Part shown: positions 28,988 to 40,228 of the stretch, piece by piece
Layout of the letters: the number at the start of each line of letters is the position of its first letter
Numbering within the stretch: position 1 is the first letter of the stretch
Assembly: GCF_902652985.1 (NCBI RefSeq)
Contig: NC_047031.1
Span: 25,358,001 to 25,422,000 of the forward strand
Length of the DNA: 64,000 nucleotides
Direction of reading: 5' to 3'
Source of the DNA: Pecten maximus
Taxonomy: Eukaryota
Position numbers and translations under genes: made by a program
The notes under the pieces: model-generated
Told to the model about the DNA's origin: nothing
What the model saw: only the letters and a program-made list of their open reading frames with translations
Databases searched by the model: none

Positions 28988-29117
28988 ATGTTCCTATCCC
29001 TACTGGTTATGGTGACTCTGGTCACGTGTGTAAACAGTAAGTATATTCACTCTTTTTAAAATTTGTCACGTGGCGAAAATCTTCATTCGCCTTCGTGTCA
29101 CGTGACTAAGCATATAA

Positions 29118-29191
<74 letters not shown>

Positions 29192-35100: not shown

Positions 35101-38100
35101 AATATCTTAGATCAATGCCGTAAAATGATAATTTTTATTTAAAGATTTCAAACCATGGGATTTAACGATGTAAGCTGCTATAGCTTGCTGAACTCGGGGA
35201 TGGTTCCGTGACACACTCTCTTCTACACCTCGACACGTAGCTCTTAAACGATGCCGGTGTCATATCCGTCACTAAAACTGACAAATGTATCAATTCATTA
35301 TTTAATGTACAATTATTGAAGTGCATGATGCTATTAAATTACGAGGACAACTTTGATAACAAACTGCCATAATTCATTCATGTGTGTATATTTTGCAGTA
35401 ACAACAACAGTTGCTCCTGTCGTCTGCCATGGGCTAAACCTCCAGGATTGCCATAAAGATTGTCTCCACCTGGATGCCAATGGCTGTGTCACGTGCTCAT
35501 GTTCTGGTAAGGGTCATACGATGGGGTTCCATATTTATATATCTGACATACATGTGAAGTCCTGGTAAATACAAGCCGCAATATAACGCTCGGCTAGAGA
35601 GGTCTTCTCTTTAGCTCGGTTGTTTGAGCGTAAGACTAGTCAGTCAGAGGTCCCTGGATTCGATCTCTAGCGGAGGCAGTAAAATAAATTAAATTGATCA
35701 TGCGCTCTGTTACTTTGGCACCCATATAAAGACTTGGTTACTATACCATTAAGCCAGAGGTCCCGGGTTCGATCTCTTGCAGAGGCAATGCCTTAAATGA
35801 AATTAATCGTGCACTCAGTTACATGTGTATATATGGCTGATTGTTAGCGCGTCGTTAATTTTCGGTAAACGAATCAATGAATCTTGTAAAGATTTATCTC
35901 CCAAAAGCCACACTATTGGATCGCCACTTAAGTATGAACACTATAAAATTGATGTATTTATCAGGATGTTATGTACTTTTATTTCATATAGGTTCTTCTA
36001 AACCTACTTCCGCCCCTACAACAGCACCAGCAACTGTCGCGCCTATCAATACTTCCGGTTCGACAGTTGTACACGCCACCACAGCTGTACCGACCATGGT
36101 TACTTCCTTGGTTACACCCTTAACAACACTACATCCTACGGCAGCCCCGGAAACAAAACCTGATCCAACTGCACAATCGTCGACATCCGGAAGTGGAAAC
36201 AACGGGGGCTGCCCTGCGTTCAGTATAGATGATTGTGATGCATCATGTGTAGAAATAGATATAATCGGTTGTCTCTCGTGCAGGTGTGTCACAGGTACTA
36301 AACAATTAAAAAATGTTACATTGTACAATAATACGAGATTATTACTTAGATAATTAAAGCAATTGTCCTTTATGGCAAGCCAAGTTGTCATTTATTCGCG
36401 GAGCAATGTTGATTCAGTATTTTACCAAATTATTTAAGATATCGTATATGTTTATGAGATATATTATATGTTTATAAGATTTCTTCTCTAAAGTTATAAA
36501 CTTATATATTATATAAGATATCTTAGAAGGAAAAGTATATAAGATATTCCATTTATTATATAAGATACTTTATAGATTAAATAAGATATCTTATATAATA
36601 ATTATATGTATAAGATATCTTATAAAATTTGGTAAAATCCTGGGTCAACGTTGCTCCGTGAATAAATGACAACTTGGCTTGCCATGGTCTTTTGTATTAT
36701 CATCCGGGCACTCAGTAAACAATTTCTGTAAGTCACCTGACGATAGCCATATGTTTAATACAAAGGGATCACGCCTATCTATAATTAGAGGTACATGGAA
36801 TTAAAAAAAGATACAAAAGACTTAACCGTTTTTCTGTTTGTTTCGTTTAATTTCGAAATGTACGAACAATTGAACTATTGTATCTTATTTTGATTTAAGC
36901 ATCACCTGGACAGAATACACAGTCGCCCTCTGGTGGAGGTCAGACAATCCCAGGAATCTGTGGACCATTTGACACAGATACGTGTGACCCCTGCCTGTGT
37001 GACGGTCCATGATAATGGTTGCTTTTCTTGTGAATGTACTTCTGGTTAGTACCCTTTATCATTATTCCATCTCCTGTTACTTAAACCAGTTTAACATCAA
37101 AACGAAGACTTAACTTCACTTTACATGTAAATAATGCTCATAATGCAATCATCCGAAAACTGAAATTTCAGTTGTTATTTGTTGATCATTATCATATGAT
37201 TGTCCCTCAACGACAGCAATAAAACACTCTGGCGCATTAAAATTTTAACTTATTATTCCAGAATTTCATCTGATAGTTACTAATTAATACGAGTTTCTAT
37301 GTTTTGATAATGAAGGGAATGGAACCGTTCCCATTTCGACAACGCCATCTAGTGGCGGCGGAAATGTACATCCGGGTGGTTGTCCATCATTTGACCCCAT
37401 GACTTGTCCTGCTGACTGTGTACAGATGGACGACCGTGGCTGTATATCGTGTACATGTACTTCAGGTAAAAGTTTACTCTAAATTGAGCTGAAAATGTGA
37501 GATACTGCTGTATTAAACATTATCAGCGTTATTGAAAATGTGTGACAAAATGCATTAATAATTTCTGTCGTACCCCAAACCCAAATCCGAAAAAACCTCT
37601 GAAATATACCTACTGTATCACATCAGACTAAGAACCAGAAAAAAGTCCGTATATCATCCATATATCGAATATTAATTTATTTCAATGACAACATGGATAT
37701 TTGTGTATGTTATTTATTTTGAAATATATCCACAAATAAAGACAAATTTTGTCAGATGCAGATTTTATCTCTGTCGCATTTTACGACATGTAGACACTCC
37801 TATCGGATCAACCACTCCAACGCCATCATCAGATCCCTCTGGTGGGGGAAATGTACATCCGGGCGGTTGTCCATCATTTGACCCTATGACCTGTCCTGCT
37901 GACTGTGTACAGATGGACGACCGTGGTTGTATGTCATGTACATGTACTACAGGTGGGTGTCTGTTTTATCACGGATCGTCTTAATGTTTAAATCTTACCC
38001 GGAGGAAAACTCGATGAACTCGTCCATCCATCTCTACTCCATTCCCCGAGTAAAGTCGAACGTGACTCAAAACGTTCACAGCCGATATAAAGTTGTCTTT

Positions 38101-40228
38101 TTGTCTGCCAATATAAATCAAATTTGAACCATGAATCATGGGAAATCTTTAAAGAAAATACAGGAAACGGCAGCGTGTTTTCGAAATGGTTAGCGTACTC
38201 TGCTTCAGATGAAACCACCAACCACATAAAAGCTAAACCCAGTTAAATGAGGCTCTCATAAACTACAAAGGATACAGATTTAATAACGAAACTATTATTT
38301 AACCTTAAACTTGATTAAACAAAGTCACAATATAAACATAGATTTTCACTCTGACGCCTGAAAAGGTACAGGGATAATAAGACCATGCATTCTGGCCAAG
38401 TAGTCATCTTCTGCTTCCTCGATACCAGTATACATATCTAGATGAATTCCGGATACTGATAGTAACAATCTCAAATGAGAGTTTCGATGGTGCCAACAGA
38501 ACCACTAGGTATACTAACAAGCACACACACGTTTGACCTCGTATCGAACAAGGTAACAAAATATTTCTAAACGACGTTGTGATATCAACCATATAATTTC
38601 CCCATGGTCTTCATCAACATGTACCTCTCGAAAATTTGTATTTTCTATTTCTCCATCAGTAAATGAGAAGCAGGACACCGACAGTGATGTTTTCAGTATC
38701 GACAAATCAGGCTAACTTTACCATACAATAACGAGTTGTCGATAAGCTGGACAGCATTAGAATAAGACGTCATTATATGACTTTTTTCATATCACACTCT
38801 TTATCAGCCCGAGACCATGATATCAGACAAAATTGTTATAATGTCACATCATATGCTGGTCATCTTATAATACCTTATATTTTATTTTTTGATATTTATT
38901 ATTGTATTTATTATTATTATTATTTATGATACCGGCTGTTACTGTATGGTAAAACGAGTCCGTACTGCGGCCCTAGGGCTGATATGGTCTCGGGTTTTTA
39001 AAGGGTGTAATATCAAAAGTGTTACACTATAGCGTCTACTCATTATTTCCATTAATTTAACATAGAGGTAAATGAGTTATCATTGCAACGAGATTTTATA
39101 ACATTTTATTGAGGAGACATGAATCATTTCAGATATTCCGGTTGGATCAACAACATCATCCCCTGGTGGAGGAAATGTCCATCCGGGTGGTTGTCCATGG
39201 TTTGACCCTACGACCTGTCCAGCTGACTGTGTACATATGTACAATCGTGGCTGTTTATCGTGTACCTGTACTTCCGGTGAGATATTTTGACAAATCATTA
39301 AAGATTATATTTTGTTCTTTTCGCTTCCACTATTCACATACAAAATTAATCTGTGTTGCCAATGTTGCGCCAAATCTTTTGTTTATCCTGCAGCTGGTAT
39401 CTGCGTTGTGGGAATAAACCTTCCACATGTATTTTTGCTGTGTTCGGCATTGACTGAATTAAAGCTGTATACTAGAATCTTAGCGCATGCGTCAATTCGA
39501 CTAACCTACATCAAAGTGAAACAATGTTCAAAAGGCGAATATATCAGGAACATTGTTGATACCGTTTCACTTAAACCTGCTTATTTTTATGACAGTTGTA
39601 TACTAATTAGAACATGGTCAGTGTTTTGAAGTGTAAGCTGTTTTTGTTTGCACGGGAAAGAAAGACAAAATGACTCACGCCAAAAACAACGTATATCTTA
39701 AGACACTGACCTTCTATTATCTATATACATGTATGATATACTGGTTGTTAAAGGTCCATATGTTTAACATAGTATCTCCAGATTTTATTTCCCAAATAGA
39801 TATTCAGCAAACTTACCAGAGTAGCTACCAACACTAATAAGATAGCATCGTGACTACTGCATGCTTTCGCATTTACCCAGTATCAAATAATATTGTAAAA
39901 CAATCATTTGTGGAATGGTTAAATATTTATCTTTTCAGGCGTTGATACTAATAGGCCAACAACGCAACCATCGACTACAGCAGCAATAGTAACAAAACCG
40001 TCAACTGATGCGCCCACCAATGCGCCTGCGGTAACAAAATCCTCAACACTGGCACCTGTTCCTACATATACGCCCACACAAGGCGCAATCGTCACTCAGG
40101 CGCATGTTGTCACGCCTGCGCCTACTGATACCACAGTACTCTGTCCGCCCGTCCGTTGCTCGGCGCCATGTAATCTCGGTATCCTGATTGATAAAAATGG
40201 ATGCCCTAAATGTAGATGTAGCGCATAA
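28988..40228 (+). CDS. Secreted mucin-like protein with 13 antistasin-like six-Cys modules (14 exons, about 744 aa)
   Basis: Signal exon 28988-29036 (MFLSLLVMVTLVTCVNS). Module exons: 29347-29517, 29853-30017, 30509-30658, 31530-31685, 31802-31942, 32324-32428, 35399-35506, 35992-36294, 36900-37044 (one extra base), 37316-37465, 37794-37952, 39133-39276. Terminal exon 39939-40228 ends CPPVRCSAPCNLGILIDKNGCPKCRCSA*. All introns are phase 1 GT-AG; AATAAA at about 40268. Confidence 0.85.
29120..29187. repeat. (CT)n microsatellite
   Basis: Pure CT run of about 68 bp. Confidence 0.98.
30638..30762. repeat. 25-bp minisatellite x5 duplicating an exon end and donor
   Basis: Unit GTATCGTATGCGACTGTTCAG|GTGG. 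Confidence 0.95.
32815..33950 (-). mobile_element. 5'-truncated, frameshifted LINE (non-LTR reverse transcriptase) fragment in an intron
   Basis: The minus strand translates GNPAIADDITLLALSPRSLQCLLDICENYSSQWRF...KS...HEHLGI...LYRKVILPSVLYG. This includes the RT catalytic ADD motif and the downstream thumb region, broken by frameshifts. Confidence 0.85.
34566..34989 (+). mobile_element. Hairpin element, copy 2 (family of 2323)
   Basis: Near-identical to 2323-2722 end to end. Confidence 0.75.
35602..35790 (+). mobile_element. tRNA-derived SINE head remnants
   Basis: A-box-like TAGCTCGGTTGTTTGAGCG and B-box-like G(A/G)TTCGATCTC occur twice; no intact cloverleaf. Confidence 0.5.
36372..36685. 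mobile_element. Palindromic MITE with long TIRs
   Basis: ATGGCAAGCCAAGTTGTCATTTATTC...GAATAAATGACAACTTGGCTTGCCAT, with imperfect TIRs of about 70 bp and an AT-rich interior with TAAGATAT repeats. Confidence 0.85.
38758..39048. mobile_element. Degenerate palindromic MITE
   Basis: TATCACACTCTTTATCAGCCCGAGACCAT is inverted as ATGGTCTCGGGTTTTTAAAGGGTGTAATA. Confidence 0.5.

Follow-up and report, generated by a model that had tools for sequence, protein, structure and literature searches.

Probable antistasin-derived modules strung on Ser/Thr-rich linkers in a predicted secreted protein of Pecten maximus and its bivalve relatives

We describe a genuine gene of Pecten maximus, lying within the 64,000-nucleotide stretch of DNA that was analysed (the window), whose product is a chain of small six-cysteine beads. 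Judged from its sequence, this protein is not peculiar to Pecten maximus and is a member of a family spread over five bivalve families, and its internal module is probably an antistasin-derived domain that lacks a Pfam model.

Gene structure and transcripts

The gene has 14 exons and 13 introns on the + strand, all introns being in phase 1 (Table 1), and each internal exon carries a phase-1 AG acceptor and GT donor. A six-frame motif scan found 12 intact six-Cys modules, one per exon, between 29430 and 40219 of the + strand and a 13th in exon 10 that is divided between two frames as assembled, while none of 30 dinucleotide-block shuffles of the whole window contained the motif. The original prediction of one module per exon with phase-1 introns throughout is thus borne out, but it overweighted the symmetry of these exons, which is usual for extracellular modules and is shared by all exons of the neighbouring paralog. 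Its further suggestion of a secreted, mucin-like scaffold built by exon duplication agrees with the signal peptide and with the 83-92% mutual DNA identity of exons 11-13: exons 11 and 12 are 92% identical over 115 bp, and exon 13, an additional copy relative to Mizuhopecten, is 83-85% identical to both. The N-terminus encoded by exon 1 resembles that of Mizuhopecten XP_021372481.1, exon 6 has no counterpart in the Mizuhopecten model, and exon 9 shares 56% identity with its ortholog over 61 aa. A 25-bp unit repeated five times at 30638-30762 includes the final 21 bases of exon 4 and extends into the intron.

Table 1. Positions of the bead-protein gene, its associated signals and the tandem paralog in the window
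Feature	Position	Strand	Description
Exon 1	28988..29036	+	Start codon ATG, hydrophobic signal peptide; 16 codons plus 1 nt; phase-1 donor
Exon 2	29347..29517	+	Linker and module 1, 6-3-7-2-1, Pro after C2
Exon 3	29853..30017	+	Linker and module 2, 6-3-7-2-1, Ala after C2
Exon 4	30509..30658	+	Ser-rich linker and module 3, 6-3-7-2-1, Gln after C2
Exon 5	31530..31685	+	Linker and module 4, 6-3-7-2-1, Asp after C2
Exon 6	31802..31942	+	Linker and module 5, 6-3-7-2-1, Asp after C2
Exon 7	32324..32428	+	Short linker and module 6, 6-3-8-2-1, Pro after C2
Exon 8	35399..35506	+	Short linker and module 7, 7-3-7-2-1, His after C2
Exon 9	35992..36294	+	Long Pro/Thr/Ser linker and module 8, 7-3-7-2-1, Asp after C2
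Exon 10	36900..37044	+	Linker and module 9, 7-3-7-2-1, Asp after C2; frameshifted as assembled
Extra base at run of four C	36988..36992	+	Assembled frame stops at residue 487
Exon 11	37316..37465	+	Linker and module 10, 7-3-7-2-1, Pro after C2; recent duplicate
Exon 12	37794..37952	+	Linker and module 11, 7-3-7-2-1, Pro after C2
Exon 13	39133..39276	+	Linker and module 12, 7-3-7-2-1, Pro after C2
Exon 14	39939..40228	+	Pro/Thr stalk of 70 residues, then the canonical antistasin domain (4-3-10-2-1; C2 followed by Ser) and the stop codon
Candidate polyadenylation signal AATAAA	40267..40272	+	From sequence
Tandem paralog	41704..56182	+	Six phase-1 exons
Paralog exons	41704-41752, 43618-43881, 44221-44355, 45250-45585, 54760-54840, 56049-56182	+	

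Contigs from runs that are only presumed to be RNA, a presumption that their skipping of introns fits, support the joining of the exons into one transcript. They connect exons 6-7, 7-8, 8-9, 9-10, 10-11, 11-12, 12-13 and 13-14, that is 8 of the 9 junctions in the examined stretch (exons 5-14) and 8 of 13 gene-wide, the joins 6-7, 11-12 and 12-13 being deduced from depth arithmetic and not seen directly. No join of exons 5 and 6 was seen in the contigs spanning exons 5-14; the acceptor of exon 5 is used in contig X2 record 6, and contigs extend beyond the stop in exon 14. Exon contig depth was 2-13 across four runs, and although contig depth is a poor measure, such low values do not look like bulk secretion. 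At the exon 6 junction codon the assembly encodes Cys and the RNA contigs appear to encode Gly, a reading drawn from the X2 and X6 pieces, which begin at 32321 and contain no other letters. Combinatorial skipping, which symmetric exons would allow, is weakly supported: 3 of 12 RefSeq isoform pairs of relatives lack one entire module, but no whole-module skipping occurs among the RNA pieces examined for the Pecten maximus gene.

The 744-residue model proposed originally stands as the transcribed frame, though not as the assembled one. Exon 10 is 145 nt long as assembled, not a multiple of three, and one base must be dropped from it to obtain the full protein. Since the base at 36992 is omitted in all three RNA-type runs covering the site (X1, X2 and X6, from two studies; run X5 ends short of it), the 744-aa frame is the one transcribed, and the orthologous module is intact in Mizuhopecten. 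The extra base is either an assembly error or a null allele.

The tandem paralog encodes a signal peptide, Gly/Ser/Asn/Thr linkers and a terminal antistasin-like domain, together with one 4-3-8-2-3 module and one four-Cys module without C3 and C6. One of its exons matches Pecten maximus XP_033725015.1 with 100% identity, and the Mizuhopecten orthologs of both the paralog and the main gene are on contigs of equal length (245,524).

The modules and their relation to antistasin

The internal modules follow the consensus C-x6/7-C-x3-C-x7/8-C-x2-C-x-C on Ser/Thr/Gly/Pro linkers, the 11 intact ones being spaced 6-3-7-2-1 (five), 6-3-8-2-1 (one) and 7-3-7-2-1 (five); with an X placed at the break, the exon 10 module also reads 7-3-7-2-1. 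As had been noticed, only the last module has canonical spacing (4-3-10-2-1), and C2-x3-C3 is constant in every module. The residues after C2 in modules 1-12 are, in order, P, A, Q, D, D, P, H, D, D, P, P and P, with Arg, Lys or Met at the P1-equivalent position in none of the 12; the non-basic character claimed for the internal modules is confirmed and extends to the Ser of the terminal one. The protein has a signal peptide and no transmembrane segment. Of its 80 cysteines (about 10.6% of residues), 78 lie within the 13 six-Cys modules, one in the signal peptide and one at the splice-junction codon that is apparently Gly in RNA. Its linkers contain 35% Ser+Thr and 10% Pro, and only 2 of 744 residues are Tyr, so the protein is not of the DOPA type. 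Net charge averages -1.9 for the internal modules and is about +2 for the terminal one.

The terminal module matches Pfam PF02822 with 25.1 bits, over the gathering cut-off of 21.2, and aligns with hirustasin, guamerin and bdellastasin (E 0.3-2), but in the family as a whole such matches are marginal, with just one of seven full-length relatives passing. None of the 11 intact internal exons reaches the cut-off, three scoring 12.6-16.9 bits (13.6 for module 1 in exon 2; 16.9, E 0.009, for module 7 in exon 8), and Antistasin matches at E<=1 were obtained for 5 of 41 module alignment members. Nevertheless, a profile of the variant modules aligned with the family's own nine terminal modules at an HHalign score of 27.4 (probability 94%), which none of 40 Cys-preserving shuffles reached (maximum 18.3). 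By this profile evidence the homology of the internal module with the terminal antistasin domain goes beyond the cysteine pattern, in line with the unmodelled antistasin-derived module originally proposed; shared with the antistasin family are C2-x3-C3 and the D-x-x-G-C-x2-C-x-C half. Because the HHalign register places variant C2 on canonical C3, the P1 equivalence of the variant modules is not certain.

AlphaFold2 models the internal module as a short helix (C3 and the two residues before it) followed by a two-strand hairpin (pLDDT 74), a pattern that all 7 internal modules predicted for the Mizuhopecten protein repeat, at low confidence, and that is absent from its terminal module. The would-be protease loop is thereby predicted to be a helical turn. 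Fold searches came back blank, and the 'variant fold' of the original prediction stays a conjecture. The disulfides 5-8, 6-9 and 7-10 of the leech antistasin domain would correspond to C1-C4, C2-C5 and C3-C6 (PMC6265900), and the joint absence of C3 and C6 from four-Cys derivatives of the tandem paralog and of Mytilus fits this pairing, although HHalign favours a different register.

Compared with the antistasin family (PF02822; hirustasin, guamerin, bdellastasin, and the antistasin-like proteins of Hydra and abalone), the likeness resides in the terminal module, which passes the cut-off, and in the motifs that the internal modules retain. The internal modules are spaced 6/7-3-7/8 instead of 4-3-10 and mostly have Asp or Pro at P1, the linkers are long and glycosylatable, and nothing corresponds to the four-Cys subdomain with which the leech 10-Cys domain begins.

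A family across bivalves

A profile built from the modules recovers this architecture from scallops and oysters, from marine and freshwater mussels and from a venerid clam, a spread that had not been foreseen. The orthologs or family members are Mizuhopecten XP_021372481.1, Saccostrea XP_062615040.1, Magallana XP_052692120.1, Crassostrea virginica XP_022305694.1, Mytilus XP_063437936.1 and Mercenaria XP_053388089.1, all named 'mucin-5AC-like' in RefSeq, and Sinanodonta KAL3886484.1, a hypothetical protein. They carry 8-17 internal modules and one terminal canonical module, and 126 of 127 internal modules in nine relatives are 6-3-7-2-1 or 7-3-7-2-1, the remaining one being 6-3-8-2-1. Across eight family proteins the linkers comprise 32-40% Ser+Thr and 72-81% S/T/G/P/A/N, there are 3-11 N-glycosylation sequons each, and 0-1 Cys falls outside the modules past residue 17, except in Mytilus, where four such Cys form a four-Cys module. 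Asp follows C2 in 56 of the 105 internal modules of these proteins, Pro in 22 and Arg/Lys in six, with Asp-Pro the commonest residue pair (32/105).

The RefSeq names are, on domain content, automatic mislabels, because the proteins lack VWD, CysD and cystine-knot domains. A gel-forming mucin of the MUC5AC type was rejected, as no VWD, C8, TIL, CysD/WxxW or cystine knot was found in seven full-length members (Pfam, E<=0.1), nor did VWD-C8-TIL, CysD or cystine-knot families match in 12 window exons. MUC5AC has a PTS backbone interrupted by CysD beads, and the bead protein resembles it in being secreted, with Ser/Thr/Pro-rich segments of predicted glycosylation broken up by small disulfide domains; it differs in being much shorter, with linkers mostly of 20-35 residues, and in having no spare cysteines for disulfide-linked polymers.

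An already described identity for the internal modules was not found, since no Pfam family covers them and literature searches returned neither a description of the family nor a paper citing six of its accessions. The kinds of proteome named in the original prediction (shell, mucus and larval cement) also yielded nothing: searches by accession, name or motif did not find the family in the papers and supplements on the mucus and larval adhesive of oysters, on scallop byssus, on mussel shell and on shipworm style, which are weak negatives because such tables may omit these identifiers.

Scaffold, matrix or inhibitor

With slightly more confidence than doubt, we regard the protein, a member of an old bivalve family, as a secreted scaffold that is glycosylated, resists proteases and has mostly non-inhibitory beads. 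The linkers would be O-glycosylated and extended, and each bead may contain three internal disulfides, C1-C4, C2-C5 and C3-C6, around a small beta-hairpin, keeping no free cysteine for inter-chain bonds. The beads would have descended from an antistasin domain whose former protease-binding loop now opens with a one-turn helix capped by Asp/Pro, so that most of them would not inhibit proteases and might act as protease-resistant spacers, possibly with weak non-covalent contacts within the hydrated material secreted. The canonical domain at the C-terminus, apparently the best conserved part between families, would be the likeliest binding or guard site; terminal modules of different families have a non-Cys identity of 0.47 (24 pairs) and internal ones of 0.28 (3826 pairs), although the 95th percentile of the internal pairs (0.53) still exceeds the terminal value. 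Lineages would adjust the length of the chain through tandem duplication of phase-1 exons. Composition and distribution point to mucus (pallial, gut or style) or another soft gel that every bivalve makes as the likeliest setting. The Arg/Lys retained after C2 in six internal modules counts against wholly non-inhibitory beads.

Antistasin domains have precedents in structural secretions, namely the leech cocoon protein (PMC7851590), sea-star footprint proteins (PMC9382459) and the antistasin-like protein (ALP) of Perna byssus (PMC6508894). The Perna viridis ALP (Unigene24116) resembles the bead protein as a bivalve structural secretion of tandem six-Cys antistasin repeats with mostly Pro after C2, but it is a separate protein, spaced 4-3-10/12, rich in Lys and Tyr and without linkers. 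The Theromyzon cocoon protein, sea-star Sfp3/8/15 and abalone lustrin A likewise reuse inhibitor-type Cys modules in extracellular materials; they are set apart by different domain mixes (antistasin+Notch, WAP+antistasin, lustrin repeats) and by the absence of those Pfam domains here.

A bolder extension of the scaffold reading, which we consider improbable, is that the family forms a bivalve-wide, VWD-independent mucin system. Asp-capped helical beads would self-associate or dock on the basic terminal domain, as the charge contrast between the modules suggests, and such non-covalent cross-links would make the family a structural backbone for feeding mucus or for the crystalline style, its gel tuned by lineage-specific exon copy number and module skipping. 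If so, an antistasin inhibitor loop would have been rebuilt as a structural bead.

Among the alternatives, a matrix role in some hard or fibrous secretion, be it the organic sheets of the shell, the periostracum, the ligament or a larval or byssal adhesive, fares best, though we think it rather unlikely. Lustrin A has a WAP end and unfolds in a saw-tooth manner; by analogy, the beads would unfold or hold under load while the terminal inhibitor domain shields the matrix. Every family member comes from a shelled animal, byssus and sea-star adhesive contain antistasin-domain proteins, and, much as in lustrin A (PMC6003135), Cys-rich repeats alternate with stretches of low complexity. Against this stand the near absence of Tyr, the lack of Asp-rich or chitin-binding domains, the motif's absence from the scallop byssus and mussel shell supplements (weak evidence), and the presence of the family in oysters. 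To our knowledge, adult oysters have no byssus. Membership in the lustrin A group was rejected, as no Lustrin-type Pfam domain (Lustrin_cystein) matched in any of seven full-length members.

Less probable again is a serine-protease inhibitor that serves mucosal or digestive defence and bears several heads, differing in specificity, on a glycosylated stalk. The retained C2-x3-C3 spacing would suit it, as would the N-terminal 6-3-7 modules, whose P1 residue is variable, with Arg/Lys among those of oyster, Mercenaria, Mizuhopecten and Mytilus, and the terminal modules, which align with guamerin and hirustasin and have small P1 residues (Thr, Val, Ser). Canonical protease-binding loops are extended, whereas the turn predicted here is helical, and Pro at P2', unfavourable for canonical binding, occurs in 8 of 8 terminal modules. 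The enrichment of antistasin transcripts in mussel digestive gland (PMC5549309) would favour the inhibitor if those transcripts belong to the bead family. A non-basic P1 alone does not rule out inhibition, as guamerin has Met there (PMC6265900); the stronger argument is Asp or Pro at P1 (78/105 internal modules) together with the common Pro at P1', and in the most amplified subtype, 7-3-7, Asp occupies P1 in 43 of 53.

It is very improbable that the internal bead is instead a defensin-like cysteine-stabilised helix/strand unit, not derived from antistasin, in a polyprotein or display of antimicrobial units. The Gly-Cys-Pro start, C1-x6/7-C2-x3-C3 and terminal C-x-C do resemble invertebrate defensins, a helix is predicted at C3, and the defensin micasin was the sole PDB sequence match of the 11-module profile (E 0.37); influenza haemagglutinin, however, matches a larger profile equally well by chance (E 0.12-1.3), C4-C5 spacing is just 2, and no dibasic sites flank the beads. 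With no Pfam defensin family among the 41 alignment members, as against Antistasin in five, and the acidic charge of the modules, a CS-alpha-beta defensin identity is not supported. Hardly credible, too, is a secreted metal-binding protein with C-x-x-C and C-x-C as thiolate ligands, as suggested from those motifs for the Perna byssus ALP (PMC6508894) and compatible with the cysteine content, since the protein is routed into the secretory pathway and its cysteines come in fixed sixes and are lost pairwise, C3 with C6, in the paralog and Mytilus, as expected of disulfides.

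Structure and splicing of the main gene

The main gene is real and spliced, and its model, established from splice-site listing and translation, comprises 14 exons with GT-AG, phase-1 introns (Table). A six-frame scan of the 64-kb window recovered 13 six-cysteine motifs, 12 on the forward strand (29430-40219) and one at 56090, and none was matched in thirty dinucleotide-block shuffles of the same sequence. The module spacings given by the original prediction, written here as residue counts between successive cysteines C1 to C6, were borne out by motif scan and translation, and the residues it placed after C2 by translation. 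Its 744-residue protein is obtained once one base is removed, as the assembled frame ends at a stop at residue 487, exon 10 (145 nt) having its module broken across two frames. At 36992, one base is missing from the contigs of X1, X2 and X6, all three sequencing runs that cover the site, which restores the main-gene frame, and the same module is intact in the Mizuhopecten ortholog. The 1-bp frameshift is a probable assembly error, with a null allele as the alternative, and may conceal the gene from annotation in the Pecten maximus genome.

Part of exons 9-14 was found in 6 of the 24 listed runs, none of the six being recorded as RNA. Four runs from three studies (X1, X2, X5 and X6) were aligned to 30770-40400, exons 1-4 lying outside this stretch, and their contigs skip the introns and join eight of its nine junctions, the exon 5-6 junction not being seen among them. 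One contig of X2 (record 7) spans exons 7-8-9-10 with 72 extra letters before and 37 after, assigned to exons 6 and 11 from the depth table, and records 8 and 9 yield exons 11-12 and 12-13-14, their short ends being placed by depth-table arithmetic and exons 11 and 12 being near-identical. The exon 9-10 and 8-9 junctions were confirmed by X5 and X6. The depth of the exon contigs is low (2-13). The codon at the junction of exons 6 and 7 holds the sole odd cysteine of the genome-derived model, where X2 and X6 appear to read Gly. A single X1 contig (record 1, depth 3) appears to splice out of exon 9 at a cryptic donor some 11 nt before its end, which would shift the frame, and in the same contig exon 8 seems to lack its first 6 nt; both oddities appear to be minor mis-splicing or alleles. 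In addition, the 25-bp repeat at the end of exon 4 provides several copies of its donor site.

Table. Coordinates of the main gene and of other features in the window
Feature	Position	Strand	Description
Main gene	28988-40228	+	14 exons
Exon 1		+	Hydrophobic leader of 16 codons
Exons 2-13		+	Linker and one module per exon
Exon 14		+	70-residue Pro/Thr stalk and 4-3-10-2-1 module
Cryptic donor, exon 9	36283-36294		Apparent use in X1 record 1
Four-C run, exon 10	36988-36991		Break between two frames
25-bp unit	30638-30762	+	21 bases from the end of exon 4 plus 4 from the start of the intron, 5 copies into the intron
Reverse-transcriptase fragment	33593-33955	-	Decayed; RVT_1, E 0.002; within 32780-34030 of the 3-kb intron 7
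High-copy element	32780-34030 / 34560-35050		Intron 7; very high contig depth; similar element near 53300-54010
Tandem paralog	41704-56182	+	332 aa; all introns phase 1
Open frames in paralog intron 4	48735-51290	-	Opposite strand to paralog; TRIM-like NHL/beta-propeller end by eye
Intronless ORF	23133-24752	-	539 aa; B-box zinc finger, E 2e-9; TRIM-like, a gene kind expanded in bivalves
Serine beta-lactamase-like (LACTB-type) exons	10145-18454	+	Pfam Beta-lactamase at 12202 and 17819
F-box/leucine-rich-repeat gene exons	897-7890	-	
Tandem array	2905-6711		323 bp x 11.7, between the F-box/leucine-rich-repeat gene exons

Antistasin kinship and the bivalve family

By sequence comparison, the terminal domain classes as an antistasin domain and the internal modules as relatives that fail antistasin membership tests. 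Against Pfam Antistasin, the terminal domain scored 25.1 bits (cut-off 21.2) and was the only module to pass, whereas 3 of the 11 internal exons reached 12.6-16.9 bits and none the cut-off; no other relevant Pfam family matched the eleven, in agreement with the suspicion that the domain is unmodelled. The terminal domain also aligns with hirustasin, guamerin and bdellastasin (E 0.3-2). Profiles built from 110 distinct variant modules and from 9 terminal modules matched each other with an HHalign score of 27.4 (probability 94%), compared with a maximum of 18.3 in 40 cysteine-preserving shuffles, and the two share the core D-x-x-G-C-x2-C-x-C, its Asp being present in 92 and its Gly in 104 of the 110. 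The HHalign register places variant C2 on canonical C3, so that cysteine equivalence is not fixed; counting in its favour, C3 and C6 are lost together in the four-cysteine derivatives of the paralog and of Mytilus, which matches one bridge of the antistasin disulfide pattern reported in PMC6265900. AlphaFold2 on a 41-row alignment (pLDDT 74) predicted a hairpin and a helix of one turn that ends at C3. A low-confidence single-sequence model gave the same helix and hairpin in 7 of 7 internal modules of the Mizuhopecten protein and no helix in its terminal one. Structure searches with the module gave no matches, the domain being too small for a blank result to be informative. Taken as sequence relationships, these data point to an antistasin-derived internal module, and the gene defines a protein domain that is absent from Pfam models.

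A search of 1.84 billion representatives with a profile built on the 11 intact internal modules returned 45 matches, 44 with the strict variant motif. Among the 22 examined, all nine that were assigned to organisms are bivalves (Saccostrea, two Mytilus, three Sinanodonta, Mizuhopecten, Mercenaria and Potamilus), which suggests that the family is restricted to this class; a word search added Magallana and Crassostrea virginica. Full-length members share one plan, namely a leader, 8-17 variant modules on linkers, a Pro/Thr stalk and one canonical terminal module, though no terminal module was recognised in two M. gigas models or in a further one from Mercenaria. The closest relative, Mizuhopecten XP_021372481.1, has 10 internal modules, two fewer than the window gene. 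The family is kept across five bivalve families, and the split between pteriomorphs and heteroconchs dates to the early Palaeozoic. RefSeq names most members 'mucin-5AC-like', a label that is wrong, and membership of the gel-forming mucins was rejected, as seven members contain no VWD, CysD or cystine knot. The same label appears in oyster stress and disease studies, not necessarily for this gene (bioRxiv 10.64898/2026.09.08.750289, PMC11813985). The Sinanodonta relatives carry neighbouring locus tags (ACJMK2_026466, 026468 and 026469) and the two Mercenaria models share one chromosome, so clustering in tandem, or else the splitting of gene models, could be widespread among family members.

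Module duplication and the proposed role

Expansion of the 7-3-7 subtype took place independently in each lineage: in Mytilus, Magallana and exons 11-13 of the window gene, most such modules have a nearest own-species identity of 0.65-1.0, above their best match from another family, and over their coding part alone exons 11-13 share 83-92% DNA identity. The 6-3-7 modules at the N-terminus are divergent and older. Combinatorial exon skipping, which the original prediction considered, finds weak support in the RefSeq isoforms of relatives, which are automatic models of near-identical exons. Of 12 isoform pairs, three include a member (M. gigas X3, C. virginica X3, M. trossulus X2) that is missing exactly one module together with its linker, and in the remaining nine the difference lies in the leader region or amounts to 1-3 residues. 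No skipping was seen among the contig joints and pieces listed here, beyond which lie a further 37 joints and 1709 pieces.

The leader is of secreted type, six related proteins have no hydrophobic C-terminal tail, the linkers contain 32-40% Ser+Thr, there are 3-11 sequons, and the cysteines come in sets of six. We consider it slightly more probable than not that the protein is a scaffold of a soft secretion, and infer that its chain would be extended, glycosylated, built of protease-resistant beads and, unlike true gel-forming mucins, unable to form disulfide polymers. The conserved terminal domain, with a between-family identity of 0.47 versus 0.28 for the internal modules, would serve as the binding or guard site. 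The secreted chain could instead belong to the matrix of shell, ligament or adhesive, which we hold to be unlikely; the protein is almost devoid of Tyr. With its antistasin-related modules it might also act as a multi-headed inhibitor, an idea still less probable: in 105 modules the residue after C2 is Asp 56 times, Pro 22 times and Arg/Lys 6 times, and an Asp-Pro pair typically caps the N-terminus of a helix and makes a poor protease-binding loop. Metal binding and a defensin-like origin are both very improbable. Within the preferred scaffold reading, an inhibitor module has apparently been converted to a structural role, a shift that may have proceeded through loop remodelling and exon duplication, and the protein may work like a small gel-forming mucin; that it forms a VWD-independent mucin system of self-associating beads is doubtful.

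There are precedents for bead-and-linker architecture, for exons in phase 1 and for antistasin domains put to structural use, and the comparison also drew on further papers (PMC5549309, PMC9168380, PMC13425148, PMC6003135, PMC9382459). Perna ALP has canonical spacing without linkers (PMC6508894), whereas the window protein combines variant internal spacing with linkers. Mucin makes up 22.5% of shipworm style protein (PMC8561940), and a leech cocoon protein was compared only by its description in PMC7851590. The family was not found in the searched parts of the supplements of PMC9168380 and PMC8561940, nor its terms in those of the PMC11432763 supplement, the PMC6193008 main text and the PMC6641155 supplements. 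The literature searched held no description of module or family, which is uncharacterised so far; subscription papers and expression tables may list members under automatic names. In bivalve mucus and style gels the backbone proteins are poorly defined; this protein represents a concrete small-module candidate, whose modules are simple to express and test.

Tandem paralog and neighbouring frames

The tandem paralog has three cysteine modules of different spacing (4-3-8-2-3, four-cysteine and terminal antistasin-like), together with a dibasic site following the leader, a His/Tyr-containing segment and Gly/Asn repeats. One of its exons matches at 100% identity the Pecten maximus protein XP_033725015.1, automatically named 'cell wall protein IFF6-like', and orthologs occur in Ylistrum, Argopecten and Mizuhopecten. 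In Mizuhopecten, the contigs that carry the orthologs of the paralog and of the main gene are equal in length. Two of the open frames opposite its intron 4 had no match in Pfam, and the frames are possibly a nested antisense gene or a relic.
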